Positions 10,471 through 57,126 of a stretch of 64,000 nt of DNA are shown one piece after another (positions within the stretch are counted from its first letter, which is position 1; each line of letters opens with the position of its first letter). The stretch covers positions 154,982 through 218,981 of the forward strand of contig CAWDLU010000002.1 of NCBI GenBank assembly GCA_963803325.1. The letters run 5' to 3'. Below the pieces are notes generated by a model, which saw only the letters and a list, made by a program, of their open reading frames with translations, did not search any database and was not told the origin of the DNA. The translations under genes were made by a program, and so were the position numbers. Origin of the DNA: an uncultured Actinomycetes bacterium. GTDB lineage: Bacteria; Actinomycetota; Thermoleophilia; Gaiellales; Gaiellaceae.

Positions 10471-10633
10471 ATGATTGATCGATAATTCAGGCACCGCCGG
10501 CTGGCGATCACGACACGGCGCATCGCGGCACGCTCGACGACGCCGCGTACTCCACGGTACGCGCCACCGTCGATCCCGCCACGCTGCTTGGTCGTGGCCG
10601 TCCCCGGCAGCACCCCAATTACCGATCAATCAT
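10471..10633. repeat. MITE-like miniature element abutting the IS
   Basis: 17-nt terminal inverted repeats with one mismatch: ATGATTGATCGATAATT (10471-10487) versus AATTACCGATCAATCAT (10617-10633). Ends are AT-rich and flanked by CTAG / CTCTAG. No ORF. Confidence 0.45.
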
Positions 10634-10674
10634 CTCTAGCCCATGTCCACCCCGAACGCCCATAATGGGTTGCC

Positions 10675-13188: not shown

Positions 13189-13189
13189 C

Positions 13190-33355: not shown

Positions 33356-33375
33356 CCTCGAGCTCGCGGCGCGCC

Positions 33376-37162: not shown

Positions 37163-40087
37163 TCAGCGTTCGTGCAGGAACCGGAGCCGCTCGACGGCGG
37201 TGAGCCTGCGGCCGACGGAAACGTGCGCTTGGACGTCGGCGAGCAGTTGCTCCAGGTTCCCGCAGGCCTGGCAGGTGTGCAGGAGGACCGTGCCGTCGCG
37301 GCTGCCGGTGATCAGATCTCGGGGGTCGCTCCCGAACGCGACGCTCGTCACCCAGCCGTGGCGATCCTCGAACCGCGCCGTCAGGCGTCCCGTGGCCGCC
37401 TCCCACACCAGCGCGATGCCGTCGCGCCCTCCCGTCGCGATCCAGCGTCCGTCGGGGCTGAACGCAGCGACGTTCGTCTCGCCGGACTCGCCTCGGAGCT
37501 CCAGCACGGCGCGTCCGCTGGCGATCTCCCAGAGGCGCGTCGGATCTCCGCGGCTCGCCGTCAGCAGGAACCGCCCGTCGGGGCTGAAGGCGACGCTGAC
37601 GATCTCGGCGGTCAGGTCGCCCAACGTGAAGATCGGCTTCCCGGTGGCCGCGTCGCGCACAGCCGACGGGCCGGCGATCGTGGCCGGGGGGGCGGTGGTC
37701 ACGACCAGGCGCCCGTCGGGGCTGAACGCGGCGTCGGCCCGCAGGATCCCCGGCTGCCCCGGAAGGGTCGTCAGCAGCCGGCCGCTCGCGACGTTCCAGA
37801 TCTTGGTCGAGTCGAACCGGGCGACGGACGCGAGCCGGGTCCCGTCCGGGCTGAAGACCACCCGATCCACCTCCCGCCGGTGCCCGCGCAGCTCGTGCAG
37901 CAGCGTGCCGGTCGTCGCGTCCCAGATGCGCACCACGTGATCCGTTCCGCCGCCGGCCGCAAGCCGGCCGTCCGGGCTGAAGGCAACGGACAGCGCCTTG
38001 CCGCCGGTCGGGTTCCGGAGGCTGACCACCGGACCGCCGGCATCGACTGCCGAGATCATCGCGGCGACGCCCGCACGTCCGATCGCCCCGGTCAGGACGC
38101 GCCCGCCGTCCGGGCTGAGCGCGGCGTCCAGGACGGGCAGGCGCTTGGGGTCGCCGATCGTGCGGACGCGGGTTCGGGCGTTCGTGTCCCAGAGGCGTGC
38201 TGTCCAATCGGCGCCCCTGCTCAACGCGAGACGGTCGTCAGCGGCAAAGCCGACCACGCTCACCTCGCGGCCGTGGGATCCAAGCCGGGCCGGTTGCCCG
38301 CTGTCCAGGGACCAGACCCGTGCGGTGCCGTCGTCGCTCGAGGTGAGCACGAGGCGTCCGTCGGAGCTGAAGATCGGGACGCCGACGCCGTTGGTGTGTC
38401 CGCGCAGCTCGGCGAGCAGACGCCCCGTGCGCGTGTCCCACACCCGCGCGACCGGGTCCTCGCCGGTCGTGGCCACCTCGGCGCCGTCTGGGCTGAACAC
38501 CGCCCTGGTCACGGGATCCGGATGACCTCTGAGGGTGACGAGCAGACGGCCGCTCTGCGAGTCCCAGATGCGTGCGGTCCGGTCGGCCGAGGCCCCGACC
38601 ACGCGCGCACCCTCCGGGTCGAACGCCGCGTAGTTCACGCTCGCTCCGGCGCCGCGGAGCACCGCGACGCTCGCGCCGGTGACCGCCGACCAGACGCGAG
38701 CCGTGCCGTCGTCTCCGGCCGTGACCACCCGGGTGCCGTCCGGACTGAAGAGGGCGCGGTTCACCCCGCCCCGGTGGCCTCGCAGGACGTACAGCCGAGC
38801 ACCCGTACGCGCGTCCCACACGGTGGCTCCGTCGGGCCCGGCGGCGACCACGCGAGTGCCGCCGTGATCGAACGCTGCATTGAACACGGACCCGTTTCCC
38901 CGAAGCGCGGTCGCCGGCCGTCCGCCGGTGAGGTTCCAGACCCAGACCACGCCGTCGGCGCTCACGGCGAGCGCCCGGGTGCCGTCGTCGCTGAACGAGG
39001 CGCCGTAGAGCGCCGCCGTTGGGCCCTGAAGGACGGCGCGCGGGTCGCCGGTGTGGGCGTCCCAGATCCGAACGGTGCCGTCGGAGCCCGCGGTCAGCAG
39101 CCGCTCGCCCCGGCGGTCGAACTTGACCGCGTCGACCGTTCCCCGGTGCCCGCGCAGCTCGGCGACGAGCCTGCCGGTCCGCACGCTCCAGAGACGCGCG
39201 GTGCCTTCGGCCGCGGCGGTCACGGCCCGGTCGCCCTGCGGCGCCAGATCGGCGGCAAACAGAGGCGCGGGCAGTCCGTCGAAGGTAGCCCGTGAGTGGG
39301 AGCTGAGGATCGCCTGGCGCAGCGCGTCCTCGGCCTCCGCGGTCGGCTTCGTCTCCGCGGCGCGAGCCGCCAGCAGCACGCTCAGCTCGGGATCGAGCGG
39401 GAGCTGCTGGTTGGCCAGGGCGGCGATCTCACGCGAGCGGGCGGTGTGCTCGCGGTCGATCGCCTGGCTGCGCGTGACGAGCGAGTAGGCGGTGAGCGCG
39501 AGCGAGACCGCGAGCGCGAACCCGACCGCGCCGAGGACGATTTGCTGCCTGCGGCTGGCGGCCCGGCGGCTCGCCGCGACGAAGTCCCGCTGGAGATCCG
39601 TCGGCGACTCCCCGTGCGGCCCGGGGTCGTTGAGCCATCTCTCCTCGGCCTCCTTCAGCCGGCCGCCGCGCAGCAGCGTGCTCTTGTCCCTGCCGCTTGC
39701 AACCCAGTCGTGGGCCTGGATGGTCAGCTCGTTGTGCTTGTCGCGCCACCACAGATCGGCGTTGACCGCCTCGACGACCTGCTCGATGCCGAGGTCGACC
39801 GGATCGGCCTCCCCGAGCTGGATCCGCTGGATCTTCGCGAGCGCATCCGGCACCCGGTCGTCAGGCACGTCGATGCGCACGATCGGGACGAGCGGCTTGC
39901 CGAGCTCGACTGCGACGCCGAGCTCGCGCCGGCAGTACTCGGACTCGAGTGACCCCGGGCTGATCACGAAGGCGAACGCGCGCGCCGCCCGGATGCCGGT
40001 GTCGATGCGCTCTTGCCAGTCGGCGCCCGGCTCGATGTCGTCGAGGTCGAGCCAGACGTTCTTTCCCCGCGCCTCGAGTGCGGTCAC
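37163..40087 (-). CDS. TIR - hydrophobic helix - WD40 repeat protein; annotated from the first canonical start, but the TIR N-terminus continues upstream without a start codon
   Basis: 974 aa from GTG 40087. TIR remainder 'VWLDLDDIEPGADW...SEYCRRELGVA', linker 'DLWWRDKHNELTIQAHDWVASGRDKSTLLRGGRLKEAEERWL', helix 'IVLGAVGFALAVSLALTAYSLV', about 15 WD40 blades ('LRGHRGTVDAVKFDRRGERLLTAGSDGTVRIWDAHTG' and similar), and C-terminal 'LLHTCQACGNLEQLL'. The in-frame upstream sequence encodes 'ADAFISYSRRDTREFVQGQL'. Confidence 0.75.
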   Translation of the reverse strand: MTALEARGKNVWLDLDDIEPGADWQERIDTGIRAARAFAFVISPGSLESEYCRRELGVAVELGKPLVPIVRIDVPDDRVPDALAKIQRIQLGEADPVDLGIEQVVEAVNADLWWRDKHNELTIQAHDWVASGRDKSTLLRGGRLKEAEERWLNDPGPHGESPTDLQRDFVAASRRAASRRQQIVLGAVGFALAVSLALTAYSLVTRSQAIDREHTARSREIAALANQQLPLDPELSVLLAARAAETKPTAEAEDALRQAILSSHSRATFDGLPAPLFAADLAPQGDRAVTAAAEGTARLWSVRTGRLVAELRGHRGTVDAVKFDRRGERLLTAGSDGTVRIWDAHTGDPRAVLQGPTAALYGASFSDDGTRALAVSADGVVWVWNLTGGRPATALRGNGSVFNAAFDHGGTRVVAAGPDGATVWDARTGARLYVLRGHRGGVNRALFSPDGTRVVTAGDDGTARVWSAVTGASVAVLRGAGASVNYAAFDPEGARVVGASADRTARIWDSQSGRLLVTLRGHPDPVTRAVFSPDGAEVATTGEDPVARVWDTRTGRLLAELRGHTNGVGVPIFSSDGRLVLTSSDDGTARVWSLDSGQPARLGSHGREVSVVGFAADDRLALSRGADWTARLWDTNARTRVRTIGDPKRLPVLDAALSPDGGRVLTGAIGRAGVAAMISAVDAGGPVVSLRNPTGGKALSVAFSPDGRLAAGGGTDHVVRIWDATTGTLLHELRGHRREVDRVVFSPDGTRLASVARFDSTKIWNVASGRLLTTLPGQPGILRADAAFSPDGRLVVTTAPPATIAGPSAVRDAATGKPIFTLGDLTAEIVSVAFSPDGRFLLTASRGDPTRLWEIASGRAVLELRGESGETNVAAFSPDGRWIATGGRDGIALVWEAATGRLTARFEDRHGWVTSVAFGSDPRDLITGSRDGTVLLHTCQACGNLEQLLADVQAHVSVGRRLTAVERLRFLHER

Positions 40088-40205
40088 CAGTTGCCCCTGG
40101 ACGAACTCTCTGGTGTCGCGGCGCGAGTACGAGATGAACGCGTCGGCCCGAGCGGCGCCGGCTTCGGCCCCCGCTGTGGGGAGACCGGCACTCGGGGCGG
40201 CGTGG

Positions 40206-41924
40206 CTACCAGTTCGGGACGAGGTTCTGTCCCCGGCTGTTGGTCAATCGTCTCTGGCCGCTTCCGTCGCGGTTCACGACCGAGATCTCGGTGTCTTTGG
40301 CCTGCCCCTCGGCGAACGCGATCCTGGTTCCGTCGGGTGACCACGTGGGGTGGAACTCGTACTCGTCGACGCTCGTCAGCCGCTGCTGGTTTCCGCCGTC
40401 CGCGTCCATCACGTAGATGCGCTGCTTGCCGTCGCGGTCGCTCTCGAAGGCGATCTCCGCCCCGTCGGGCGACCAGGCGGGATTGACGTCCGACGCGGGG
40501 TTCGAAGTCAGCCTCTTCTGGCCGCTCCCGTTCGCGTTCATCACGTAGATCTGGGGCTTTCCGTTCCGGCTGCTGTCAAAGGCGATCTTCGTTCCGTCGG
40601 GCGACCAGACGGGGTCAGCGTTCTTGCCGGCTCCCGCGGTCAGCTTCGTGCGCCCGGTCCCGTCTGCATCGATCACGTAGATCTCGGTGTCCCCGGCCAG
40701 GTTCCCCTCGAAGGCGATCTTCGCCCCGTCCGGCGACCATTTCGGGAACCGGTCGCCCGCGGGGCTCGTGGTCAGCCTGGTCTGGTCGCTTCCGTCGGCG
40801 TCCATCACGTAGAGCTGTGAGCGGCCGTAGGTCGCCCGGTTGCTCTCGAAGACGAGCTTCCCGCCGTCGGGCGACCAGGCGGGGTCGAAGCTCTGATGGG
40901 GCGGCGAGGTCAGTGGTCTCTGGCCGCTTCCGTCGGGGTTCATCGTGAAGACCTGGAAGTCGCCGCTGCGATCGCTCTCGAAGGCGATCTTCGCCGATGC
41001 GCTCCTCTCGATCGTCCACGAGTAGGAGACCGCCGGGCCGGTGTTGCCCGCTTGATCGGTCGCCCGCACCGAGAACGTGTGGCGACCGGGTGGGAGCGTG
41101 TACGGCTGGGGCGACGTGCAGGCGAACACCATCCCCCCGTCGATCGCACAGCCGTACACGGTCCCACCGGAGAACGTGAACGACGCGTCTCTGCGCGGTG
41201 TCGGGTCGCCGGGGCGGCCGCCGAGCGTCGTCGTCGGAGGTGTGAGGTCGGTGACCGGCGGCAGCGCGCTCGCCAGTTGGGCAAACGTCGTTTGCTCGAC
41301 CCGGGTCAGCTTGACCTTCTGCGGGGGTCGCGGGTTCTTTCCGAGCGGCACGACCACCTGACGGGCATAACGCTTGTCCTTCAGGTTCAGCGCCACGACG
41401 ACGCCTTTGCCCTTGCGCCCGCTCACGACGGCGACTCCGCGCCGCAGCCTGACGATTCCGCTGCGCTTGCCGACGGCGACCTCGAAGACGGGATCGGTCG
41501 TCGTCACCGTCACGTCCCGACCGAGCAGGAACTTCTTCTTCTGGCCTTTGGGCGAGGTCGAGCAGGTGGCGCCGCCGTCGAGGAAATGGATCAGCCTGGC
41601 TGCGTCCGGTACCACCTCGAGCCGGACACGCACATTCGTCTGGCAGGCCGTGCCCTTCTTCTTGACCTTGAGGCTGAAGCTGAGGAAGGTCTTTCCCCCG
41701 CCGCCGGCGCTGATCAGGTCGCCGGAGTGCAGGGGGTCTCCGGTGTGGATGCCGTGGCGGTTGATCGTCACCCCTCCGCCGGTGACTCTCTTCACCTTGC
41801 CGACGACGGCACGACCCGCTGCGCCGCCCGCCGCATCGGCCGGCACGAGCACGATCGCGCAGAGCAGCAGCGCGAGAGCTGCCCGCGGTAGGCGAGGGTG
41901 CCGGCGGACGTCGGCGAATCGCAT
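40206..41924 (-). CDS. Secreted TolB-like beta-propeller (PD40 repeats) protein with FecR-like and Ig-like N-terminal regions
   Basis: ATG 41924 with signal 'MRFADVRRHPRLPRAALALLLCAIVLVPADA'. C-terminal repeats 'FESDRSGDFQVFTMNPDGSGQRPLT', 'WSPDGGKLVFESNR...LYVMDADGSDQTRLT' and similar, six or more in all, are the PD40/TolB pattern. The tracked ORF starts at TTG 41948. Confidence 0.75.
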   Translation of the reverse strand: MRFADVRRHPRLPRAALALLLCAIVLVPADAAGGAAGRAVVGKVKRVTGGGVTINRHGIHTGDPLHSGDLISAGGGGKTFLSFSLKVKKKGTACQTNVRVRLEVVPDAARLIHFLDGGATCSTSPKGQKKKFLLGRDVTVTTTDPVFEVAVGKRSGIVRLRRGVAVVSGRKGKGVVVALNLKDKRYARQVVVPLGKNPRPPQKVKLTRVEQTTFAQLASALPPVTDLTPPTTTLGGRPGDPTPRRDASFTFSGGTVYGCAIDGGMVFACTSPQPYTLPPGRHTFSVRATDQAGNTGPAVSYSWTIERSASAKIAFESDRSGDFQVFTMNPDGSGQRPLTSPPHQSFDPAWSPDGGKLVFESNRATYGRSQLYVMDADGSDQTRLTTSPAGDRFPKWSPDGAKIAFEGNLAGDTEIYVIDADGTGRTKLTAGAGKNADPVWSPDGTKIAFDSSRNGKPQIYVMNANGSGQKRLTSNPASDVNPAWSPDGAEIAFESDRDGKQRIYVMDADGGNQQRLTSVDEYEFHPTWSPDGTRIAFAEGQAKDTEISVVNRDGSGQRRLTNSRGQNLVPNW

Positions 41925-42014
41925 CGAACAGGTGGCGGAGATGGGCAACGAACGCCCCCAGGTGAGCTGACAGCAACAACGACGCTCTCACGCCGCGTGG
42001 GGGGTGTCAAGCCC

Positions 42015-42040
42015 CCGAACCGGTAACGGGACCGGTTCGG
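42015..42040 (-). terminator. Hairpin downstream of the 42056-45004 gene
   Basis: 10-bp perfect stem CCGAACCGGT / ACCGGTTCGG with a 6-nt loop, 16 nt after the stop codon on the minus strand. Confidence 0.4.
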
Positions 42041-42055
42041 ACTCGCGGGTGCGGG

Positions 42056-45004
42056 CTACTCCGCGGCGAGGCGCTCGCGCGCGAGCGCGCGCAGCGGGCC
42101 GATCGGCACGCAGAGGTCGCAGGCCCAGAGCCGTGCCGTTCCGTCGTCTCCGACAGTGAGGACGAGCTTGCCGTCGGGGCTGAAGACCGCGCTTTCGACC
42201 GGGCGGCGGTGACCTCTGAGGGTGTCGACTCGGTGGCCGCTGGCGGTGTCCCAGAGCCGCGCCGTCCCGTCGTCGCCGGCGGTGAGGACGAGCTTGCCGT
42301 CGGGGCTGAAGACGGCGCCGTAGACGGGGCCGCTGTGGCCGCTGAGCGTGCGGACGGGATCGCCGCCGGCCGTCTTCCAGAGCCGGGCGGTCCCGTCGTC
42401 GCCGGCGGTGAGGACGAGCTTGCCGTCGGGGCTGAAGACGGCGCCGTAGACGGGGCCGCTGTGGCCGCTGAGCGTGTGGACAGGGTTGCCGGTGGCGGTA
42501 ATCCAGAGCCGCGCGGTCCCGTTGGACCCGTCGCTGCCGGCAGTGAGGACGAGCTTGCCGTCGGGGCTGAAGACGGCGCTCGTGACGGGACCCTTGTGGG
42601 TGAAGGTGTGGTCGGGGGCGATGGGGTGGCCGGGGCTGCCGCCGGCGGTTCTCCAGAGCCGTGCCGTCCCGTCATCGCTGGCGATGAGGACGAGCATGCC
42701 GTCGGCACTGAAAAGCGCACTGGAGACGGTGCCGTCGTAGCCCTTCAGGATGGGTCCCGGGAGGCCGTCGGCAGTGTCCCACAGCTGCGCCTTTCGACCG
42801 ACGGTGAGGACGAGCTTGCCGTCGGGGCTGAAGACGGCTGTGGAGGCGGTCCCGCCGTGGCCGAGAGTGTGGACGGGGTCGTCGCTTGCAGCGTCCCAGA
42901 GCCGCGCGGTCCCGTCGTCGCCGGCGGCGAGGACGAGCGTGCCGTCGCGGCTGAAAACGGCACTGGTGACGGCGACGCGCTGGCCGATGAGGGTGTGGCC
43001 CGCTTCGCCGCCGGGCGTCTTCCAGAGACGCGCCTTCCGACCGGCGGTGAGGACGAGCGTACCGTCGGGGCTGAAGACGGCGCTGTGGACGGGGTCCTTG
43101 GAGCCGCCGAGGATGATCGGGCGGTCGCCGCCGACGTCCCAGAGCCGCGCAGTCGTGTCGTCGCCGGCGGTGAGGACGAGCTTGCCGTCGGGGCTGAAGA
43201 CGGCGCTGTGGATCGGGTCCTTGTCTGCGCTGAGCGTGTCGATGGGGTCGCCGGTGGCCGTATCCCAGAGCCTCGCCGCCCCGTCGGCGCCGGCGGTGAG
43301 GACGTGCGCGCCGTCCGGGCTGAAGACGGCGCCGGCCACGAGCTTGCCGTGGTGACCGTTGAGAGTGTGGACGAGGTGGCCGCTCGCGGTCCTCCAGAGT
43401 CGCGCAGTTCCGTCGTCGCCGGCGGTGAGGACGAGCTTGCCCCGGGGGCTGAAGACGGCGCTGGAGACGCGGCCGCGGTGGCCGTGGAGGGTGCGGATGG
43501 GCTCGCCGCTGGCCGTCTGCCAGAGCTGCGCCGTTCCGTCGTCGTCGGCGGTGAGGACGAGCGTGCCGTCGGGACTGAGGACCGCGCTGTGAACCGGGCC
43601 GTGGTGGCCGCTGAGGGTGTGGACGAGGCGGCCGGTCGCAGTCCTCCAGAGCCGCGCCGTCCCGTCGGTGCCTGCGGTCAGGACGAGCTTGCCGTCGCGG
43701 CTGAAGACGGCGCTGGAGACAAGGCCGTGGTGGCCCTTGAGGGTGTGGACGAGGTGGCCGCTCGCAGTCGTCCAGAGCCTCGCGGTTCCGCCGGCGCCTG
43801 CGGTGAGGACGAGCTTGCCGTCGCGGCTGAAGACGGCGCTGGAGACAAGGCCGTGGTGGCCGCTGAGGGTGTGGACGAGGTGGCCACCGGCGGTCTTCCA
43901 GAGCCTCGCCGTTCCGTCGGCGCCGGCGGTGAGGACGAGCTTGCCCCGGGGGCTGAAGACGGCGGTGGAGACGGGCTTGCCATGGTGGCCCTTGAGGATG
44001 GGGCCGGGCTCACCGCCGACCGTGTCCCAGAGCCGTGCGGTCCCGTCCTCGCCCGCGGTGAGGACGAGCTTGCCGTCGGGGCTGAAGACTGCGCTCGAGA
44101 CGGCAAGCCTGTTACCCCGGAGCGTCCTGCGGAGCAGGTCCGCGGCGAGCGCCACCCGCAGCGCGCCTTCCGCCTCGCGTGTCGGCGACGTCTCCGCCGC
44201 TCTCCCTGCCAGTGCGAGCGCCGCCGAAGGATCCGCGTCGACAGCTGCAACCGACTGCCCCGCCAGTGCCCGCGACTCTCCGATGAGAGCCTGGTCGCGG
44301 GCCCGCACTGTAAGCACGGCGAGGGTCGCTGCACCGATCGCCAGTGCTGCGAGCAGCGCCCCGGCTGACCAGGCGAGGCGCAAAATGCGCCTGTGCTGGG
44401 TGATGTCCTCGCCGAGCAGCGTGTCCTTGTCGCGGCCGTGGATCGGCGCAGCGATGTCGGCGATCGCGTTGCGGAAGTCGGGCTGGCGGAGCGACACGTC
44501 CGATTCGGCGCGCGCGAAGCGGAGGTCGATCCAGAAGGGCTCGGAGGCGAACGCGTGCTCGAGCGCGCGTGGCAGCGCGGTCGTCCGCTGCCAGTCGAGA
44601 TCGCCGGTGTGTTCGTCCCAGGCGATCTCACCGTCGGTCAGCGCGATCAGAAAGGTGTCGATCGACTTGTGCTCGCGCCAGTAGCCGATCTCCTTGCCGA
44701 CCCACTCCGACTCGGCCGCGTCCGGTGAAGCCAGCAGGACGAAGAACCGCGACCCGGCCAGCGCGCGTTCGATCCCCGACCAGAGCGCAGGCGTCGCCGA
44801 CAGGCTCGTCTGGTCGCGGAATACGCGCAGCGCGTTCAGCCGGTACCACGGCTTCGCAAATCGGCGTAGCCCGCGCTGAAGCGACGGCGCGAGCCTTCCG
44901 TCGGCCGCGTGGCTGTAGGAGATGAACGCGTCGTACCCGGCCGCACCGTCCGGCGAGCGTGCCCGCCGCCGGCGGAGCGAGTACCTACGGGCCGGGCGGC
45001 TCAT
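42056..45004 (-). CDS. TIR - hydrophobic helix - WD40 repeat protein (982 aa) with highly homogenised blades
   Basis: 'YDAFISYSHAADGRL...SEWVGKEIGYW' (TIR). Helix 'LAWSAGALLAALAIGAATLAVLTV'. About 16 blades of consensus 'TLxGHxGxVxSAVFSPDGKLVLTAGDDGTARLWxTAxGxxVx', several identical at the DNA level. C-terminal 'RLWACDLCVPIGPLRALA'. Confidence 0.85.
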   Translation of the reverse strand: MSRPARRYSLRRRRARSPDGAAGYDAFISYSHAADGRLAPSLQRGLRRFAKPWYRLNALRVFRDQTSLSATPALWSGIERALAGSRFFVLLASPDAAESEWVGKEIGYWREHKSIDTFLIALTDGEIAWDEHTGDLDWQRTTALPRALEHAFASEPFWIDLRFARAESDVSLRQPDFRNAIADIAAPIHGRDKDTLLGEDITQHRRILRLAWSAGALLAALAIGAATLAVLTVRARDQALIGESRALAGQSVAAVDADPSAALALAGRAAETSPTREAEGALRVALAADLLRRTLRGNRLAVSSAVFSPDGKLVLTAGEDGTARLWDTVGGEPGPILKGHHGKPVSTAVFSPRGKLVLTAGADGTARLWKTAGGHLVHTLSGHHGLVSSAVFSRDGKLVLTAGAGGTARLWTTASGHLVHTLKGHHGLVSSAVFSRDGKLVLTAGTDGTARLWRTATGRLVHTLSGHHGPVHSAVLSPDGTLVLTADDDGTAQLWQTASGEPIRTLHGHRGRVSSAVFSPRGKLVLTAGDDGTARLWRTASGHLVHTLNGHHGKLVAGAVFSPDGAHVLTAGADGAARLWDTATGDPIDTLSADKDPIHSAVFSPDGKLVLTAGDDTTARLWDVGGDRPIILGGSKDPVHSAVFSPDGTLVLTAGRKARLWKTPGGEAGHTLIGQRVAVTSAVFSRDGTLVLAAGDDGTARLWDAASDDPVHTLGHGGTASTAVFSPDGKLVLTVGRKAQLWDTADGLPGPILKGYDGTVSSALFSADGMLVLIASDDGTARLWRTAGGSPGHPIAPDHTFTHKGPVTSAVFSPDGKLVLTAGSDGSNGTARLWITATGNPVHTLSGHSGPVYGAVFSPDGKLVLTAGDDGTARLWKTAGGDPVRTLSGHSGPVYGAVFSPDGKLVLTAGDDGTARLWDTASGHRVDTLRGHRRPVESAVFSPDGKLVLTVGDDGTARLWACDLCVPIGPLRALARERLAAE

Positions 45005-45016
45005 CGGCCGGCACTT

Positions 45017-46135
45017 CTAGGCGGGGAAGCCGGCGAAGTGCTCGCGTTTCACCTTCGAGGCGACCGCGCGGCCGACCTGCTGGAGCTCGGCCACGTGCTC
45101 GATCGAGTCGAGCCGCTGCACCTCGGCCGGGTTGATGTCGGGCACACCGAGGAGCGTCAGGCCTTCCTTCGACAGCTCGCCGTTGTAGCGGGCGTAGGTG
45201 AAGAGCTTCGGCTCGACGGGCCCTCGCACAGTGGCGAGGTCGCCGACCTCGCGGTCGAGCGGGTCGCCTGCGAGGCAGCGGCCGAAGACCCGGCAGAGCA
45301 GGTCCTGCTCGTTCAGCGCGGCGCCCATCAGGGCGGCGGGGATCGAGCCGGCGTTGTAGAGCAGGTTCATCTCGTCCGGCCGGAGGTTCACGTTCGCGCG
45401 CGGGTTCGTTCCCGTGCCGATCGAGACCAGCAGCATCTGCTCCTCGCCCGTCGCCCAGCCGAGGCCGTACGGCTCCACCGTCGCCATCAGGAAGAGCTGG
45501 AACGCCGGGTTATTGTACATCGTCACGCCGCCGTCGACGAAGACGAACGACTGCCCGCCGCCGATGTCGATCACCTCCGGCGGGAAAAAGGTGGGCGCCG
45601 CCGTGCTCGCGCGCACGAGCTGCCAGAGCGGGAGGTCGAGATTCCGGAACGGGCGGTCGGGCAGGTTGTACCGCGCCGCCGGGTTGTTCGAGAGCGGCCA
45701 GGGCGAGTCGGTCGTCGCGTTGCGCACGACGACCAGCAGCAGCGTTCTGAGCCGGTCGCTGCCGAGTGTCGTGTCCTCGCCGAGCTCTTTCCGCAGACGC
45801 CTGGCGAGGTGGTCGTCCTCGTACTTGTAACGGAAGCGCGCCAGCACCCTTGCCTTGTCGAACATGTCGGTGGCGTTCTCGACGTAGAAGTCGCGGATCC
45901 GCTCGGCGGACATCCCGACAGAGAGGCAGGTCGCGATCACCGCGCCGGTGCTCGTGCCGGCGATGTAGTCGAAGTAGTCGGCGAGGACGAACTCCCTGCC
46001 GCCGCCGCAGTCTTCGCGCAGAAGCCGCTCGATCTCGGCCAGCACCTCGATCGTGATCAGCCCGCGGATGCCGCCGCCGTCGAGTGCAAGCAGCTTGCGC
46101 GGGCCGGCCTTCGCGAGCTTGTCGGCCACCGTCAT
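45017..46135 (-). CDS. Patatin-like phospholipase
   Basis: From ATG 46135: oxyanion 'LALDGGGIRGL', nucleophile elbow 'IAGTSTGA' (GxSxG), and the catalytic Asp context 'FVDGGVTMYNNP'. Stop lies 12 nt before the TIR-WD40 start. Confidence 0.85.
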   Translation of the reverse strand: MTVADKLAKAGPRKLLALDGGGIRGLITIEVLAEIERLLREDCGGGREFVLADYFDYIAGTSTGAVIATCLSVGMSAERIRDFYVENATDMFDKARVLARFRYKYEDDHLARRLRKELGEDTTLGSDRLRTLLLVVVRNATTDSPWPLSNNPAARYNLPDRPFRNLDLPLWQLVRASTAAPTFFPPEVIDIGGGQSFVFVDGGVTMYNNPAFQLFLMATVEPYGLGWATGEEQMLLVSIGTGTNPRANVNLRPDEMNLLYNAGSIPAALMGAALNEQDLLCRVFGRCLAGDPLDREVGDLATVRGPVEPKLFTYARYNGELSKEGLTLLGVPDINPAEVQRLDSIEHVAELQQVGRAVASKVKREHFAGFPA

Positions 46136-46137
46136 CG

Positions 46138-48168
46138 TCAGACGTCCATCCTCGTCGGGTTGACGATCGCAAAGCGGCTGCTCATCTGCTCGGCTCTCCG
46201 GGCGAAGTCGGAGGTCCCGCCGGGCCCGTCGCCCGTCGGCTTCTCGTCCCAGACCATGATTGTCGAGATCCGGCCGTTGGGCGCCTCCACCCGAGCCGTG
46301 TCGAGGATCCAGAGATTGGTGCGCGCGAAGACGTCCAGCCCGGCGGGAGGGTCGCCGAGCCGGTCCGGCTGCACGGCGACCTCGGCACGCTCGAGCACCT
46401 GGTGGAACCGCTCCTCCCACCGGCCGGCATCGCCGCGAAGCCGCACCGACCTCGCGAGGAACTCCGGCTCGGGGAGGGCGAGCAGGATCCGCACATCCGC
46501 ATCCAGCTCGAGTGCGAGCTCGGCGAACAGCAGGTCGGCGCCGCGGGCCCCGCCGCTGATCGCGAGCGTTCCTGGCCCGACCGACGCAGCCTCGAGCTCG
46601 TGCCGCATCCGCTTCCGAACCGCATCCTCCTTCTCCGGCGGAAACCGGGGTTCCGGGCGGTCCGGCGCGTCGATCATGTGGCCGCTGCAGACGATCACGT
46701 TGCCGTAGCGCTTCGCCGGCGGCGCGACGCGGTCCCGGATCGGCTCGAGGGCGGCCCGAACCTTCGCTACAGCTTCGCCCCGAAAGCCGAGCTCCTCGTA
46801 CAGGCTCAGCTGGGAGAGCATCGACTCGAGCTGAAACAGGGTTGCGCCGGGCGCGGCCAGTGCCTCCAGGTACAGCTCGACCGCGCGATCCGAGTTGCCG
46901 GCAAGCAGATCGAGCTCGCCGAGCGTCGACGCGGGCCAGACGACCGCGTCCTCCGCACCCGTGTCGTATGCGCGCCGCCGGGCCTCGGCCGCCGCCACGC
47001 GGACGCACGCGGCCAGGTCGTCGCTGTTCTCGGTGGCGGGCCCTTCCGGGTCGGCGGCCGCTCCCACGTGCTCGAGGAGCTGCGTCAGCCCGACGACGTT
47101 GATCCCGTTGTAGTACGACTCGAGGTCTCGCCGGTGCGCGCGGCGGTAGCTGCGGATCGCCAGTCGTGCCTGTGCCGCCGACTCGCGGGCGATCGCCCGC
47201 CGCTGATCGGGGTCGCCGACACCACTCCAGAGCGCGCGCCAGGCGTCCTTGTAGATGCGGCCGAGCGCGCCGTGAGACTCCGGATCGTCGGGTCGCCCCT
47301 CGAGCACGGTTGCAATCCGCTGCTCGGCCTCGGCCGCCCGGCCGAGCCGACCGAGGACGAGGGCGAGGATGCGCATCGCGCCGAGATTGCCGGGATCGAA
47401 GTCGAGCAGTTCGTCGAGGACGCTCTCCGCGACGTCGAACCGCTGGAGCTCGACCAGCGCACGCGCCGCCTCGGTCAGAAGCTTGCCCCGGTGGAACCGC
47501 GTCGGCGCGTCACGCGCGAGCGTCAGGACGTCGCCGGCGTGCCCGTTCCGGCGCGCGATGCGCACCCGTGCCTGCCAGTCGTCCAGAACGCCCTGGAAGT
47601 ACTTTGCGGTCGCCGTCTCGATCCCGCTCCAGTCCGCAGGCCGAAGCCCCCGCAGCGTCAGGTAGACAGGGCTGCCGATCGTCCGGCCGTCGGTGGCCAG
47701 CGCTTGCCGGAACACCACCCCGAGGCGCTTCGCCTCGGCGGCGACCCGTTCCGCCCACGCGTCGCCGCGTCTGGCGGCGGCCAGGAAGAGCGATCCGTCG
47801 TAGCTGAACGTGCGATCGGGGGCGACGTCGAACGGGCGGGGAATCCAGCCCGCGGTGATCATGAACACGCCGCGCTCGGCGACGCCGTGGCGGATGCCGA
47901 GCTCGTAGAAGACGTTCGGGTTCAGGATCGAGATGTCCGCGACCACGAGGTCGGCCGTGACCAGCTCGAAGTACATGTCGGTCCGGATGTCGCCGGCGCC
48001 CGGCTCCTCGTCCGCGCGGAACGGGTCGCAGCCCGCCTCGCGGAGCGCCGGTGCGATCACGAGCCCGTACAGCTCGTTGAAGTCGACGGTCACGGTTCGG
48101 CCTCGCTGCGTCGGTGACGGCACCTTGCGCTTCCCGAACGGCATCGCGACAAACGCGCGCGGCAGCAT
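46138..48168 (-). CDS. Three-part protein: N-terminal flavodoxin-fold DUF4071/nucleoside-deoxyribosyltransferase/TIR-like domain, TPR-like helical middle, C-terminal SLOG-like Rossmann domain
   Basis: From ATG 48168: 'MLPRAFVAMPFGKRKVP...VDFNELYGLVIAPALREAG...ADISILNPNVFYELGIRHG'. The middle is a helical repeat region ('ARALVELQRFDVAESVLDELLDFDPGNLGAMRILALVLGRLGRAAEAEQ'). C-terminal 'NVIVCSGHMIDAPDRPEPRFP...LAISGGARGADLLFAELALELDADVRILLALP'. Stop TGA lies 2 nt before the patatin ATG. Domain names are from memory of the families. The tracked ORF starts at 48264. Confidence 0.65.
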   Translation of the reverse strand: MLPRAFVAMPFGKRKVPSPTQRGRTVTVDFNELYGLVIAPALREAGCDPFRADEEPGAGDIRTDMYFELVTADLVVADISILNPNVFYELGIRHGVAERGVFMITAGWIPRPFDVAPDRTFSYDGSLFLAAARRGDAWAERVAAEAKRLGVVFRQALATDGRTIGSPVYLTLRGLRPADWSGIETATAKYFQGVLDDWQARVRIARRNGHAGDVLTLARDAPTRFHRGKLLTEAARALVELQRFDVAESVLDELLDFDPGNLGAMRILALVLGRLGRAAEAEQRIATVLEGRPDDPESHGALGRIYKDAWRALWSGVGDPDQRRAIARESAAQARLAIRSYRRAHRRDLESYYNGINVVGLTQLLEHVGAAADPEGPATENSDDLAACVRVAAAEARRRAYDTGAEDAVVWPASTLGELDLLAGNSDRAVELYLEALAAPGATLFQLESMLSQLSLYEELGFRGEAVAKVRAALEPIRDRVAPPAKRYGNVIVCSGHMIDAPDRPEPRFPPEKEDAVRKRMRHELEAASVGPGTLAISGGARGADLLFAELALELDADVRILLALPEPEFLARSVRLRGDAGRWEERFHQVLERAEVAVQPDRLGDPPAGLDVFARTNLWILDTARVEAPNGRISTIMVWDEKPTGDGPGGTSDFARRAEQMSSRFAIVNPTRMDV

Positions 48169-48266
48169 CCGCTCGTCCTGTGAGCTCACAGGCGGCCGCC
48201 TCTGGCAGTCATCGCAATCGAGAGCGTACGCTCCCCGCTGTGGACGCGAGCGGAAGGTGATCACGC

Positions 48267-51200
48267 GTGGCCGGTGTCTTCATCAGCTACCGGCGTAGCG
48301 ACACGGCCCCGTACGCAGCGCGTCTGAAAGTACGCCTCGACTCCGAGTTCGGCGACGGGTACGTCTTCATGGACGTCGACTCGCTCAGACCCGGGGAGCC
48401 GTTTCCAAAGGTGATCGAGCAGACGATCGCGTCCACCGAGGCCGTGCTCGCCCTGATCGGGCCCGACTGGCTGACCGTGACCGGCGCCGACGGGCGGCGC
48501 CGGCTCGACAACCCCGGCGACTTCGTCCGGATCGAGCTGGCGACCGCCTTCCGGCAGGGGCGGGTCGTGATCCCGGTGCTGCTCGAGAACGCCTCGATGC
48601 CGCACGCGGTCGAGCTCCCCGAGCCGCTCGCTGCCCTCGCGGAGCGGCACGCGATCGAGCTCGGGGACAAGGGCTGGGACGGTGACGTTGCCCGCCTCGT
48701 GCAGCGCCTCGAGGAGGTTGTCGACACGATTCCGCCCCGCCCGTACCCGGGCATGGTCGCGTTCGGGCGAGCCGATGCCGCTCGGTTCTTCGGGCGGGAG
48801 AAGGAGGTCGGCGAGATCGAGGACCGGCTCGCCTCGCAGCGGTTCCTGTGCCTCGTCGGCCCATCCGGGTGCGGCAAGTCGTCGCTGATCGCGGCGGGCG
48901 TGCTTGCCGACCTCGAGCGCACGCAGGCGGTTCGTTGGGCTGTGCGCACCATGCGGCCGGGGGGAGCGCCGATGCGTTCGCTCGGCGAGGCGCTCGGTGC
49001 CGAGCTCGATCACACGGCCACGCCCGAGGCGGTCGGGCGGGCGGCCGGACAGGCGATCGCCTCCCAGCAAGAGGCGGCGCGGCTGCTGCTCGTGGTCGAC
49101 CAGCTCGAGGAGCTGTTCGCGCAGGCCGGCTCGGACGAGCAGGCGCGGTTCGTCGCCGCGCTCGAGGCGATCCACGAGGTCGACGAGGCCTCGATCGTGC
49201 TGGCGATCCGAGCCGACTTCTACGGCGAGTTGATGGAGAGCGCGCTCTGGCCGCTCGTCGAGGGAGGCAAGGTCGACGTGCCCCCACTCACCGGCGACGC
49301 TCTCGCCGAGGCGATCGTCGAGCCGGCGAAGGCCTGCCACGTGACGATCGAGCCCGACCTGCTCGAGCGACTGCTGGCGGACGCAGGCAACGAGCCCGGA
49401 GCGCTGCCGCTCCTCCAGGAGGCGCTCGTACGCCTGTGGGGGTCGATGCACCTGCACCGGATCTCGCTCGCCGCCTACGAGCAAATCGGCGAGGGCCGCG
49501 GCGGCCTGTCCGCCGCCGTCGCCGAAACGGCCGACGCGGCGCTGGCGGCGCTCTCGCCCAAGCAAGTGTCGATCGCCAAGCGCGTGCTGCTCCGGCTGGT
49601 TCAGTTCGGGCAGGGCCGTCCGGACACGCGCCGCCGGCTCGCCTTCGAGGACCTGCGCAGCGAGGGCGACGACGACCGCGCGCTCGAGGAGGTGCTCGAC
49701 AGCCTCGCCCGCTCCCGCCTCGTCACGCTCGCCGGCTCGGCCACCCCGGGCGCGGGCGGTGAACTGGTCGACCTCGCCCACGAGGCGCTGATCGCCGGGT
49801 GGCCGACGATGCGCGAATGGCTGGCCGAGCGACGCGACGCCGAGCAGGCTCGCCGGCGGCTCGAGGGTCACGTTGCGACCTGGGAGGAGCACGACCGCAC
49901 CGCCGCCTTCCTCGACGAGGTCGAGCTGCGGGAGGCCCAGGGCTGGCTCGCCGGCCCCGACGCGCGAGAGCTCGGGGTCCCGCGCGGCCTGCCCGAGCTC
50001 GTCGCGGTGAGCGCCGCCAAGCTGCGCCGCCGCCGCCGTCTCCGCCGCGCTGCGATCGCCGGTCTCGCCGGCCTGCTGATCGCGGCGATCGTGCTCGCGG
50101 GCGTCTTCCTGCGGGCACGCAACGACGCCATTCACCGGGCCAACGTCGCGCTCTCGCGCGAGCGGGCGGCCGGTGCGCTCGCGGCTCTCTCCGTCGACCC
50201 GCACCACAGCCTGCGGCTCGCGCTCCAGGCTGTCGACGCGCTCAGGGCGGACCGCTCCGCCACGGCGGCGGACCGCCAGGAGGCCGAGGCGGCCCTGCGG
50301 GACGCGGTCCGCGCGTCACGGGTTCGCGCGCTGCTGAAAGGGCACACGGCCGAGGTCGTGTCGGCGCACTTCGACGCGAGCGGCCGGCGCGTCGTCACCG
50401 CCGGCTGGGACGGGACAGCGCGCGTATGGGATGCGCGCACCGGTAGAGCCGAGGCGGTGATGCGTACCGGCGCGGTTCAACTCGAGACAGCCGCCTTCGA
50501 TCCCGACGGGACGCGTGTGATCACGGCCCAAGACGACGGCACCGCCCGCGTGTGGAACGCCGGGACCGGAGCCCCTCTGGCGGTGCTTCGCCACGAACCG
50601 CGCTCGAAGGTGCTCGATGCCGGCTTCAGCGCTGACGGCCGCTTCGTCGTCACCGCCGGCTCCGACGGGACCGCGCGCGTCTGGGACGCGAGCACCTGGC
50701 GGCCGGAGACGACGCTCGGCCGTGTCGGCGGGCCGGAGATCCGGCGCGCGGTCTTCAGCCGCGACGGCTCGCTGGTGGCGACCGCCGGACGCGACGGATT
50801 CGCCGTCGTCTGGAGCACGTCCACCGGCAGGTCGCTTGCCCGGCTCCGGCACGGGGCCGCGGTCGGATCGGTGCGCTTCGGCCCTGACCGGTCGATCGTG
50901 ACCGCGAGCGACGACGGCACCGCGCGGGTCTGGTGTCCGTTCGCGCGCGAAGCGAAGCCGGTCGTGCTCCGCGGGCACCAGGGCGTGGTCACCGACGCCG
51001 AGTTCAGCCCCGACGGCACGCGCGTCGTCACGGCGAGTCTCGACGGCACGGCGCGGTTGTGGAGCCCGCGGACGGGCGAGGAGCTCACCGTCCCGCTCAC
51101 ACACGGCGGCGCGGTCCGCACCGCGACGTTCAGCCCCGACGGGACGCGTGTCGTCACGGCGAGCGCCGACCAGACCGCCCGAATCTGGGACGCCCGCACG

Positions 51201-52400
51201 GGCAAGGAGCACGCCGCGCTTCGGGGTCACGACAACTACGTCGGGAGCGCCGAGTTCAGCCCCGACGGGACACGGGTCCTCACGTCGAGCTTCGACGACA
51301 CCGCTCGTGTCTGGGACGCGGCCGAGGAGGAGCCCCTGGTCACGGTGGGAAGCAGCAGGTTCCCGGTTGCTCGCGCCGCCCTCAGCCCGGACGGCAAGCG
51401 ATTCGTGACGACGCCGTCGCTCGGTGATCCGCGCGTCCTCGACGCCGGGACCGGGGCGGCGGTCTCTACCCTGGCCGTTGACGGCGCTCGGGTCGTCAGC
51501 GCAGAGTTCAGCGCCGACGGCCGCGACGTGGTCACCGCGGAGGCGGGCTCCGTGCGGATCTGGGCCGCGGCCACCGGCAGACTCGTGGGCTCGAAGGAGC
51601 TGAAGGGTGACCCCGTGGTCGCCGTCCCGAGCCCCGATGCCGCCGCCATCGTCTCGGTCAGCGTGGACGACTCCGCCGATCGGTCCGTGACCACGGTCGC
51701 GCTCTGGAATCGCACACGCCCGGAGCCGGCCGCGACCTGGCACCTCGACGGGCGTGGGCAGGGAGCGGACTTCGACGCGAACGGCCGCCGGCTCGTCGTC
51801 TGGTCGGAGGACGGCGGCGTCTCGGTGTGGGACATCCCCTCACGCCGCAGGCTCGCCGCCTTCTCGATCCCCACCGCGCTGCGGTCCGCTTCGCTCAGCC
51901 CCGACGGCTCGCGCGTGGTCACCGCCGGGAACGACGGCATTGCTCGGATCTGGGATGTCGCGAGCGGAGGGGAGCTGAAGAGCTTCAGCCATGCTCTCGC
52001 GGTCGTCGCCGCATCGTTCAGCGCCGACGGCAGCCGGCTGCTGACCGCCGGCCTCGACCAGACCGCGAAGATCTGGGACGCGCAAACGGGTGACGAGCTC
52101 GTCTCGTTGAAGGGTCACGAGTCCGAGCTTGCCGGTGCGACCTTCAGCGCCGGCGACCGATGGGTGGTGACCGCCGGTCTCGACGAGACGGCGCGCACCT
52201 GGGACGCGCTGACGGGTCAGGAGCTCGCGGTCTTTCAACATCCGGCCGCCGTCACCGAAGCGACATTCGACCGGGACGGCCGCCGCGTGCTCACGCTGGC
52301 GGCCGACTTCCGCGCACGCGTGTTCCGCTGCGATACGTGCCTTTCGCTCGACGGGCTCGTTCGCCTTGCCCGCAGCCGGCTCGTCGCCGGTCTCCAGTAG
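48267..52400 (+). CDS. TIR - nSTAND-type P-loop NTPase - hydrophobic helix - WD40 repeat protein (1377 aa)
   Basis: GTG 48267: 'AGVFISYRRSDT...DFVRIELATA' (TIR). 'PYPGMVAFGRADAARFFGREKEVGEIEDRL...FLCLVGPSGCGKSSLIAAG' (Walker A at about 48858-48884) and 'LLLVVDQLEELF' (Walker B) match the nSTAND1-type pattern. Helix 'AAIAGLAGLLIAAIVLAGVFL' at about 50050-50112. About 16 WD40 blades. C-terminal 'RVFRCDTCLSLDGLVRLA'. Confidence 0.85.
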   Translation: MAGVFISYRRSDTAPYAARLKVRLDSEFGDGYVFMDVDSLRPGEPFPKVIEQTIASTEAVLALIGPDWLTVTGADGRRRLDNPGDFVRIELATAFRQGRVVIPVLLENASMPHAVELPEPLAALAERHAIELGDKGWDGDVARLVQRLEEVVDTIPPRPYPGMVAFGRADAARFFGREKEVGEIEDRLASQRFLCLVGPSGCGKSSLIAAGVLADLERTQAVRWAVRTMRPGGAPMRSLGEALGAELDHTATPEAVGRAAGQAIASQQEAARLLLVVDQLEELFAQAGSDEQARFVAALEAIHEVDEASIVLAIRADFYGELMESALWPLVEGGKVDVPPLTGDALAEAIVEPAKACHVTIEPDLLERLLADAGNEPGALPLLQEALVRLWGSMHLHRISLAAYEQIGEGRGGLSAAVAETADAALAALSPKQVSIAKRVLLRLVQFGQGRPDTRRRLAFEDLRSEGDDDRALEEVLDSLARSRLVTLAGSATPGAGGELVDLAHEALIAGWPTMREWLAERRDAEQARRRLEGHVATWEEHDRTAAFLDEVELREAQGWLAGPDARELGVPRGLPELVAVSAAKLRRRRRLRRAAIAGLAGLLIAAIVLAGVFLRARNDAIHRANVALSRERAAGALAALSVDPHHSLRLALQAVDALRADRSATAADRQEAEAALRDAVRASRVRALLKGHTAEVVSAHFDASGRRVVTAGWDGTARVWDARTGRAEAVMRTGAVQLETAAFDPDGTRVITAQDDGTARVWNAGTGAPLAVLRHEPRSKVLDAGFSADGRFVVTAGSDGTARVWDASTWRPETTLGRVGGPEIRRAVFSRDGSLVATAGRDGFAVVWSTSTGRSLARLRHGAAVGSVRFGPDRSIVTASDDGTARVWCPFAREAKPVVLRGHQGVVTDAEFSPDGTRVVTASLDGTARLWSPRTGEELTVPLTHGGAVRTATFSPDGTRVVTASADQTARIWDARTGKEHAALRGHDNYVGSAEFSPDGTRVLTSSFDDTARVWDAAEEEPLVTVGSSRFPVARAALSPDGKRFVTTPSLGDPRVLDAGTGAAVSTLAVDGARVVSAEFSADGRDVVTAEAGSVRIWAAATGRLVGSKELKGDPVVAVPSPDAAAIVSVSVDDSADRSVTTVALWNRTRPEPAATWHLDGRGQGADFDANGRRLVVWSEDGGVSVWDIPSRRRLAAFSIPTALRSASLSPDGSRVVTAGNDGIARIWDVASGGELKSFSHALAVVAASFSADGSRLLTAGLDQTAKIWDAQTGDELVSLKGHESELAGATFSAGDRWVVTAGLDETARTWDALTGQELAVFQHPAAVTEATFDRDGRRVLTLAADFRARVFRCDTCLSLDGLVRLARSRLVAGLQ

Positions 52401-57035: not shown

Positions 57036-57126
57036 CGAGGGGGCACTCCCGAGCTGAGCCTGTCCGTTCCGGCCAATCGCGGCCGGCGGGGTCTGCGAGT
57101 ACGATCGAAGAGCGAGAGGAGGTTTC

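Follow-up and report, generated by a model that had tools for sequence, protein, structure and literature searches.

The single tested relative of the locus described here, which lies at positions 42,056 to 48,168 of a 64,000-nt stretch (hereafter the window) of contig CAWDLU010000002.1 from an uncultured Gaiellaceae bacterium, is BcTir/BcTpr, a two-gene operon of Bacillus cereus reported in a preprint (bioRxiv 10.1101/2023.05.26.542521). BcTpr is a protein of 415 aa, in which a MilB-like N-glycosidase domain (aa 1-189) is followed by tetratricopeptide repeats (TPR). In the preprint, this domain (BcTprN) was modelled on MilB, a CMP-type glycosidase, and I10, M11, N80, P81, N82 and E86 were predicted to contact the substrate. 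The substitutions N82A and E86A abolish NAD+ depletion by BcTpr, formation of a cyclic ADP-ribose (cADPR) isomer and phage defence, and cADPR is reported to bind with a Kd of 1.9 uM. As far as the work of Burroughs and Aravind (J Bacteriol 2020, e00365-20) is relayed in the same preprint, 78 “core Tpr” operons were described, which include Tir-Tpr (28), YpsA-Tpr (5) and Patatin-Tpr (4) operons in addition to LSDAT, calcineurin and caspase assemblies.

The locus in the window carries three genes on the minus strand, which encode a DrHyd-TPR-S-SLOG protein (A), a patatin lipase (B) and a TIR protein with WD40 repeats (C), and a divergent gene (E) for a second type of TIR protein. By sequence and gene context, the cassette is a SLOG-fused, patatin-coupled form of the DrHyd-TPR class of NAD+-signal systems, which has already been described: the features of that class, namely a glycosidase with an Asn/Glu pair, a TPR-S scaffold and an association with TIR and/or SLOG, patatin or SLATT partners, are all found in the family. 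A first-pass annotation, made from the letters of this DNA, did not recognize the trio as a described system, whereas the class was predicted by Burroughs and Aravind in 2020, in the portion of their study quoted by the preprint, and one TIR/TPR member has been tested. Similar to BcTir/BcTpr, the locus combines a predicted glycosidase followed by a TPR scaffold with one or more adjacent TIR genes. In contrast to BcTpr, A ends in a YpsA-like SLOG domain fused to the scaffold, and its gene shows translational coupling to that of a patatin lipase. BcTir is small and has a natural Glu-to-Lys change, while the TIR partners in the window are large TIR-TM-WD40 or TIR-nSTAND1-TM-WD40 proteins (TM, transmembrane helix) with an intact catalytic Glu. 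Finally, BcTpr is its own effector through NAD+ depletion, while the presumed effector in the window is a separate lipase. The reading that we favour, with a probability of about 0.6, is that of a conflict cassette of the abortive-infection type, driven by a nucleotide signal that would most likely derive from NAD+, with A and B as the core and TIR proteins as exchangeable sensor or regulator modules.

The core of A and the patatin lipase

The core genes and the predicted domains of A are as follows.

46138-48168, minus strand: gene A (676 aa), open reading frame (ORF), hub protein of the cassette
47764-48168, minus strand: A residues 1-135, predicted flavodoxin-like DrHyd/NDT-like domain
46729-47526, minus strand: A residues ~215-480, predicted all-helical TPR-S/DUF4071-like scaffold
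46141-46716, minus strand: A residues 485-676, predicted SLOG domain, closest to YpsA
45017-46135, minus strand: gene B (372 aa), ORF, CapV-like patatin, presumed effector

Homologs of A are numerous. A word-indexed search yielded 825 full-length-type homologs, most of them ~680-690 aa long and ~50% identical across phyla, and an exhaustive search (E <= 1e-30) yielded 286 clusters at 50% identity; 439 genome loci were confirmed. The surroundings of A were scanned outward in 78 genome loci with phmmer queries and a hidden Markov model (HMM) built for TIR, and SLOG-fused loci were counted when they held a full-length A flanked on either side by 2 kb or more (n = 34). A patatin gene adjoins A in 23 of these 34 loci and a TIR gene is found within 5 kb in 14, both being present in 11. 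For SLOG-less DrHyd-TPR genes (n = 12), patatin is adjacent in seven loci, and 11 have a TIR gene no farther than 5 kb away. The loci in which A and patatin adjoin include Actinomycetota, Verrucomicrobiota, Acidobacteriota and others, and the adjacency, followed by a TIR gene in a subset, extends across at least six phyla. A reciprocal scan started from patatin in 80 metagenome loci (patatin 62-85% identical to B), 67 of which offered at least 400 nts upstream. Domains of A were found in 46 of the 67, with the SLOG end directly upstream of patatin in 33 and elsewhere in the locus in 13, while among the 21 loci without them, a divergent TIR gene is present in 10. The identity matrices of A and B are correlated (Mantel r = 0.77, with 0 of 2000 permutations as high). 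The adjacency of A and patatin recurs more than by chance, and these two genes form the constant core, to which TIR proteins are frequent, variable partners.

No full-length A was found on viral contigs. Relatives of the DrHyd N-domain, 27-40% identical over residues ~5-180, occur on 245 IMG/VR viral contigs (among them L162-L241), where they may serve in defence carried by phages or in counter-defence. A phage-borne origin of A was considered and rejected, as the viral contigs hold relatives of the N-domain only.

Split and fused forms of the core proteins were also found, in which the borders of the domains shift while the set as a whole is retained. The cultured Rhodococcus sp. JS3073 carries on plasmid NZ_CP113952.1 (record 623966-639934, our locus L245) a gene for a 560-aa SLOG-patatin fusion, at 8418-10100 of the locus; the whole cassette covers ~626.4-634.1 kb of the plasmid. 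The same-strand order is TIR-nSTAND1-TM-WD40 (1424 aa), DrHyd-TPR-S (479 aa) and SLOG-patatin, and the start of the fusion gene overlaps the stop of the DrHyd-TPR-S gene. The Rhodococcus SLOG homolog has a weak Pfam match to YAcAr. No other observation points as strongly to a regulation of the lipase by SLOG as this fusion does, and it shows the SLOG domain to be most tightly tied to patatin. In Rhodobacterales, SLOG is a separate, divergent gene beside patatin and DrHyd-TPR-S, with no TIR, and a Desulfobacteraceae locus (L045) has an extra stand-alone SLOG gene (10110-10742). Among the A-like fusion proteins (P0276, P0351, P0318, P0291, P0379, P0319 and P0261), TIR is joined to A-like regions in P0276 and P0351 (AAA_35-TIR-A) and in P0318 (TIR-DrHyd-TPR). 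The other fusion partners are SLATT_1/DUF4231, ParA-like/nSTAND1, FHA and a sigma-54 AAA+ activator, the last of which makes a transcriptional output possible. Homologs of 1,000-1,260 aa were considered as patatin-A fusions. This was rejected, because what precedes the A-like region in them is AAA_35-TIR, SLATT or ParA/nSTAND1.

In the AlphaFold2 (AF2) model of full-length A (pLDDT 82), residues 1-135 form a flavodoxin-like alpha/beta unit. A PDB search with the profile of this domain returned solely Rcl/DNPH1 deoxynucleotide N-hydrolases (twelve distinct chains, E = 0.014-0.2), and E89, in the FYELG motif of A, lines up with the catalytic Glu of DNPH1 GYELG. The domain carries the motif LNPNVFYELG and a strand-1 loop, M9-P10-F11-G12, and residues N83, N85, V86, Y88, E89, G91 and R93 are invariant in 31 diverse sequences, down to 28% identity. 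In A and in its SLOG-less relatives, M9, N83-P84-N85 and E89 match the pattern and spacing of the BcTpr residues; A is proposed to be homologous to BcTpr because of these motifs and the layout of the domains, and not because of an alignment. The N-domain is predicted to be an NDT/DNPH1-like N-glycosidase (“DrHyd”) with the catalytic Asn/Glu pair intact. PADLOC returned a single weak match of A to a TIR effector (aa 58-127, E = 4e-4), which is read as a resemblance within the TIR/DrHyd superfamily.

Pfam matches A in its middle only, with TPR-S (PF20308, E = 1.9e-15) and generic TPR models, the MAP3K_TRAF_bd/DUF4071 model (PF13281) staying below threshold (E = 0.0023). Among 32 family members, PF20308 is found in all and PF13281 in seven (best E = 1.5e-5). 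The PF13281 scores of L061 and P0318 are 24.8 bits (cutoff 24.1) and 34 bits. The TPR-S region of A is helical (pLDDT ~90) and contains the motifs GRIYKD..W and YYNGIN. The PF13281 matches make this region similar to the N-terminal region of ASK1/MAP3K5, with the differences that A has no kinase domain and is itself below the PF13281 threshold. PDB profile searches with the whole family and with the 290-480 segment returned no ASK1, only generic TPR and designed proteins; hence the link to ASK1 comes from PF13281 and from the naming by PGAP only, which calls plasmid relatives of the first 310-366 residues of A ‘TRAFs-binding domain-containing protein’.

When the C-terminal 198 residues of A (aa 479-676) were modelled alone (pLDDT 88, pTM 0.87), Foldseek placed YpsA (2nx2) first in the PDB (E = 5e-6, TM 0.58/0.63), and further matches were DprA from two species, ShosA, LOG enzymes, the MoCo-carrier protein and the LSDAT domain of TRPM2. 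Hardly any variation is seen in two Gly-rich loops, GGARGAD and GDGPGGT, and in an unusual loop, SGHMID.PDR..PRFP; VWDE is also conserved. The model argues for a YpsA-like SLOG fold. Pfam and NCBIfam gave no match with the isolated end domains of A, and Foldseek with the full-length model returned TPR proteins only (OGT, SPY and APC), which is uninformative for the end domains. These results agree with the first-pass annotation, which had proposed an NDT-like N-domain, a TPR/DUF4071-like middle and a SLOG-like C-terminus, and which had quoted N- and C-terminal strings that do occur in A and fall into columns with some of the highest conservation in the family. Its view of A as signal receptor or processor holds in part: SLOG is present, but A is probably not merely a receptor, since the N-domain keeps the Asn/Glu pair reported to be catalytic in BcTpr.

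The matches of the two end domains also bear on another role for A, that of a nucleotide-pool effector, in which (deoxy)nucleoside monophosphates would be the substrates of a DNPH1- or MilB-like DrHyd domain and SLOG would work as a LOG-type phosphoribohydrolase. The two would jointly deplete or change nucleotides, and the patatin would be a second, independent effector. Deoxynucleoside monophosphate N-hydrolases are the sole solved structures matched by the N-domain sequence, BcTprN was modelled on the CMP-type glycosidase MilB (bioRxiv 10.1101/2023.05.26.542521), LOG enzymes are among the SLOG matches and the highly conserved polar loops of SLOG are suggestive of catalysis. However, BcTpr, with the same motif, was reported to consume NAD+ and to make a cADPR isomer (bioRxiv 10.1101/2023.05.26.542521), the best SLOG matches are of the non-catalytic YpsA and DprA types, and signalling is favoured by the persistent linkage both to TIR domains, specialized in NAD+, and to ligand-activated lipases of the CapV kind. 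We regard a nucleotide-pool role as improbable.

B contains GGGIRG at aa 20 (oxyanion hole), GTSTG at aa 60 and DGG at aa 201, the motifs named in the first annotation, with Ser62/Asp201 as predicted catalytic dyad. It matches Pfam Patatin (PF01734, E = 6e-28) and the PADLOC phospholipase effector (E = 5e-43), and its nearest solved structure is CapV (8zr9, E = 2e-19), a cUMP-AMP-activated lipase being another near relative. The NCBIfam model CBASS_lipase (NF041079) gives 117.7 bits against a cutoff of 200, with profile positions 2-213 of 317 aligned, and the C-terminal part of B, ~130 aa, is family-specific. By structure and profile, the patatin is closest to CapV, as had been proposed, and B is related to CapV but is no CapV equivalog.

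The TIR partners and the optional status of gene C

TIR-WD40-type genes number four (C, D, E and F) inside 20 kb of the window.

42056-45004, minus strand: gene C (982 aa), ORF, TIR-TM-WD40, optional TIR sensor partner
48267-52400, plus strand: gene E (1377 aa), TIR-nSTAND1-TM-WD40, divergent from A, likely second TIR sensor partner
37163-40153, minus strand: gene D, second TIR-TM-WD40 paralog
32836-36357, plus strand: gene F, fourth TIR-TM-WD40 paralog (TIR_2 E = 1e-26)

In C, the TIR domain (Pfam TIR_2 E = 4e-8, ThsB_TIR E = 6e-5) is followed by a conserved post-TIR (juxtamembrane) region of ~80 residues, one predicted TM helix (aa 215-233, 44306-44362, hydropathy peak 2.23) and 14 Pfam WD40 repeats, which TRF reports as a tandem repeat of 126 nts x 15.6 at 42124-44095. 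As first annotated, the TIR domain holds FISYSH and SEWVGKEI. The WVGKEI string corresponds to WVHKEI of SARM1, which carries the catalytic Glu E642, and C keeps this Glu. The TIR motif FVLFISxxALESEWVKKEI is common to C (query 44468-44947 of the window) and to an 824-aa ‘Tetratricopeptide repeat protein’ in the PDB (9m0n/9umd), which may be a characterized TIR-TPR defence protein. In E, TIR (aa 4-144, TIR_2 E = 3.8e-14) precedes an nSTAND1 NTPase (aa 159-545, PF20703 E = 1.5e-104), a TM helix (aa 597-615, peak 2.71) and WD40 repeats. In each of C, D, E and F, TIR and WD40 are separated by a single TM-like helix, on the N-terminal side of which the sequence is rich in Arg. Hence their topology may be similar to that of Toll-like receptors, with TIR inside and the propeller outside.

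A TIR gene is linked to 41% of the SLOG-fused and 92% of the SLOG-less loci (Fisher p = 0.003). Because SLOG-less forms are nearly always flanked by TIR and SLOG-fused forms often are not, this suggests that SLOG and a small regulatory TIR are partly interchangeable. The C-termini of the TIR partners vary and consist of WD40, nSTAND1-WD40, a Vgb-lyase-like propeller, YARHG or nothing. A TIR gene directly follows patatin on the same strand in L001, L038, L040 (Verrucomicrobiota), L063 (Flavobacteriaceae), L082, L085 and others, and in at least 12 metagenome loci, where most of these TIRs resemble that of E (110-139 bits). In L082, the closest patatin relative, the TIR after patatin is of the C type. 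The Flavobacteriaceae operon (L063) encodes DrHyd-TPR, patatin and a C-type TIR-TM-propeller protein 47% identical to C over 260 aa, and therefore the cassette can take up C-type proteins as whole units. The architecture of E flanks A in L001, L033 and L245 and is an equally recurrent partner architecture; the first-pass annotation, which had stopped at three genes, left out the divergent gene at 48267-52400. A closer relationship, with E as ortholog of the Rhodococcus TIR-nSTAND1 gene, was rejected: their identity is only 25%, and the conservation is architectural.

Six Flavobacteriia loci (L049, L052, L055, L056, L057 and L062) share the order TIR, TIR, DrHyd-TPR (without SLOG) and patatin, and the carriers of this four-gene set include the cultured Flagellimonas algicola and Maribacter algarum. 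In the Desulfobacteraceae metagenome-assembled genome (MAG) locus L045 (11904-14044), an ORF for Hcp of the type VI secretion system (Pfam E = 4e-31) comes after patatin, at the position of the C-type TIR. The ORF after Hcp starts inside the conserved post-TIR region and looks like a decayed C-type gene.

A 93%-identical MAG locus (L001) lacks C and the PD40 gene that follows it, and its patatin gene is directly followed by the ortholog of D. Between patatin and D, the window (40180-45016) has ~4.9 kb in addition to what is found at 11150-11230 of L001, and this difference, which comprises C and the PD40 gene, is either an insertion in the window or a deletion in L001. The reciprocal context of C was also sampled: around three of three C-type homologs, which are 57-74% identical and lie on long contigs, neither A nor patatin occurs within 7 kb. 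C was thus discarded as an obligate partner, and it is optional. The proposal that A, B and C form a unit therefore stands in part: A, patatin and TIR genes do co-occur far beyond chance, but the conserved unit is A plus patatin.

These observations lend some weight to the possibility that the island harbours several independent systems. In that case, A and B would be self-contained, with A sensing the trigger and making and reading its own signal and the patatin killing the cell, while C, D, E and F would be autonomous TIR-(STAND)-WD40 NADase effectors of one gene each; the 12-nt spacing of B and C would reflect insertion and not function. The ~4.9-kb indel that C resembles in the comparison with L001, the stand-alone C-type homologs, the 12 of 34 A loci with patatin and no TIR within 5 kb, the Rhodobacterales with DrHyd-TPR, SLOG and patatin and no TIR, and the complete sensor-plus-enzyme architecture of C alone all point in this direction. 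On the other hand, many phyla show a strong enrichment of TIR genes beside A and B, the order A-patatin-TIR recurs on one strand with short gaps, C-type TIRs follow patatin in the Bacteroidota locus L063 and in L082, TIR-A and nSTAND1-A fusion proteins exist, and 11 of 12 SLOG-less A loci have a TIR neighbor. We judge a set of independent systems to be rather unlikely.

The architecture of the TIR genes recalls the nSTAND1 TIR-NTPase-WD40 proteins: E has the order TIR-nSTAND1-WD40, and in the TIR-WD40 proteins C, D and F the propellers are internally repetitive. The genes of the window differ from these by their linkage to the DrHyd-TPR-S-SLOG/patatin core and by a predicted TM helix before WD40. 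Expansions of STAND, TIR and WD40 proteins were linked to multicellular bacteria (Kaur et al. eLife 2020/2021), which bears on the idea of a death pathway in development or envelope stress of a multicellular actinomycete, in which, in place of anti-phage immunity, an extracytoplasmic WD40 would pass cues from the envelope or from kin on to TIR, and A and patatin would execute lysis. In addition to the expansions reported by Kaur et al. (2020/2021), the single TM helix between TIR and WD40 in four of four paralogs, the expansion of TIR-WD40 paralogs within one locus and the viral contigs without full-length A are consistent with such a pathway. Against it speak the patchy distribution over phyla at ~50% identity, suggestive of horizontal gene transfer, the type I restriction-modification gene nearby, the phage-defence phenotype of BcTir/Tpr (bioRxiv 10.1101/2023.05.26.542521), and small mobilizable plasmids that carry relatives of the core close to toxin-antitoxin and restriction genes. 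The plasmid genes named ‘TRAFs-binding domain’ adjoin small TIR genes, next to toxin-antitoxin or restriction genes; examples are the 9.8-kb Pseudomonas plasmid pA7J1 with a small TIR gene, an A. baumannii plasmid with two TIR genes and an Agrobacterium plasmid that combines a DUF4231/SLATT gene with a TIR gene in divergent orientation. We judge a developmental role to have little likelihood.

Relation to Thoeris and CBASS and a proposed mechanism

Thoeris offers the most economical analogy to the cassette. Both have a TIR protein and a SLOG-containing protein, and in both a TIR-made, ADPR-derived signal would lead to a SLOG-controlled effector; the Rhodococcus SLOG-patatin fusion mirrors SIR2-SLOG. 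The SLOG of the window differs in being YpsA-like and fused to DrHyd-TPR-S, and TIR is dispensable in many loci. A, B and C contain no SIR2, Macro or TM effector and no match to a ThsA model. Models for the Thoeris TIR protein give marginal matches (E ~1e-3 to 1e-2 in PADLOC and NCBIfam; PADLOC ThsB E = 6e-4 to 8e-4). Because a ThsA-type effector is missing and the ThsB matches are marginal, the cassette is not Thoeris. With CBASS it shares the lipase, as the catalytic core of B is most similar to the cGAMP- and cUMP-AMP-activated CapV lipases. It is not CBASS, because none of the six genes located between 37.1 and 52.4 kb encodes a CD-NTase and the lipase scores under the equivalog cutoff. 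Both exclusions had been anticipated by the first-pass annotation, from the lack of SIR2, Macro and CD-NTase.

In the favored reading, the trigger would be sensed by the variable C-termini of the TIR proteins (WD40 beyond the membrane helix, and the STAND NTPase in E), by the TPR-S scaffold of A, or by both. NAD+ would then be cleaved by TIR, by the DrHyd glycosidase of A or by both, yielding a signal derived from ADP-ribose. This signal would be bound by the SLOG domain of A, which would license the patatin through a small molecule or a protein contact, leading to degradation of membrane phospholipids and to cell death or arrest. A more specific, tentative version is a four-part pathway, in which TIR proteins in the style of Toll-like receptors would pass the signal to a DrHyd-TPR-S hub that amplifies the NAD+-derived signal, from there to the YpsA-type SLOG and finally to patatin. 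TIR would be cytoplasmic and WD40 extracytoplasmic, the cue would come from the envelope or an invader, and SLOG would switch on patatin directly; in SLOG-fused forms, SLOG would replace the small regulatory TIR. Such a pathway would be the first axis from TIR/SLOG to a lipase.

Several points weigh against the favored reading. The tested relative, BcTir/Tpr, is known from a preprint only, has neither SLOG nor patatin, and its TIR is catalytically dead, while no experimental study of A or of any patatin-containing member was found in the literature searched. The DNPH1 profile matches of A are weak and the active-site loops of its N-domain have low pLDDT in the model; because of both, NAD+ is proposed as the substrate of A by analogy. 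PADLOC (PADLOC-DB 2.0, 2023) contains no model for A, and hence provides no curated defence evidence. Both patatin and TIR are missing from the surroundings of A in eight of the 34 full-length loci. To these are added the patatin loci without TIR, the 93%-identical locus without C and the stand-alone C-type homologs, which were weighed above with the possibility of independent systems.

The family is large (286 clusters and ~440 genome loci in many soil phyla), yet its hub protein is without a model in PADLOC-DB 2.0. If the favored reading is true, a membrane-lipase output would be added to TIR/SLOG signalling with NAD+-derived molecules, for which the outputs known so far are SIR2, Macro/TM and caspase-like, and the YpsA-like SLOG clade would gain a function. 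The family would offer a bacterial counterpart to the DUF4071 module of the animal ASK1 signalosome, and the TIR-TM-WD40 partners would be a bacterial analog of the Toll-like-receptor topology. As Rhodococcus sp. JS3073 is a cultured carrier of the SLOG-patatin fusion, these ideas are directly testable.

Gene boundaries, transcription signals and neighboring genes

The start of A is placed at ATG 48168 and not at the upstream GTG 48264, because the 31 homologs in the alignment open with M-x-P-R-x-F-V-x-M-P-F-G. A and B are separated by 2 nts (TGAcgATG), and B and C by 12 nts (TAG aagtgccggccg ATG), which agrees with the ORFs and junctions first annotated. Two further features were considered as transcription signals.

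48169-48266: A/E intergenic region of 98 nts, presumed shared promoter region
42017-42040, minus strand: GC-rich hairpin past the stop of C, possible terminator lacking a U-tract

The hairpin, which had been described as closing the gene string, is present with the sequence GAACCGGT-cccgtt-ACCGGTTC; a U-tract is absent. Its folding energy is -26.4 kcal/mol (z = -2.46), which was equalled by 4 of 200 shuffles. Scans of 41.8-48.5 kb for consensus promoters and terminators found nothing, as expected at 71% GC, and no sigma-70 consensus was found in the 98-nt region.

A gene for a secreted PD40/TolB-like beta-propeller lies between C and D (40206-41948). The TIR frame of D (..GAARADAFISYSRRDTREF..) extends upstream of its first canonical start, GTG 40087 (window 40087-40210), and no ATG, GTG or TTG occurs from this GTG to the stop of the PD40 gene at 40206. 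The ortholog of D in L001 (11135-11260) has the same start layout. D thus has either a non-canonical start or encodes a protein without TIR strand A. In the same ortholog (~12900-14239), the WD40 part is out of frame, through an assembly frameshift or as a pseudogene. Farther along the window, on the plus strand, are genes for an HTH_66/DUF433 protein (57058-57822) and for the HsdM methylase of a type I restriction-modification system (59312-60841), and the region as a whole looks like a modest defence island.

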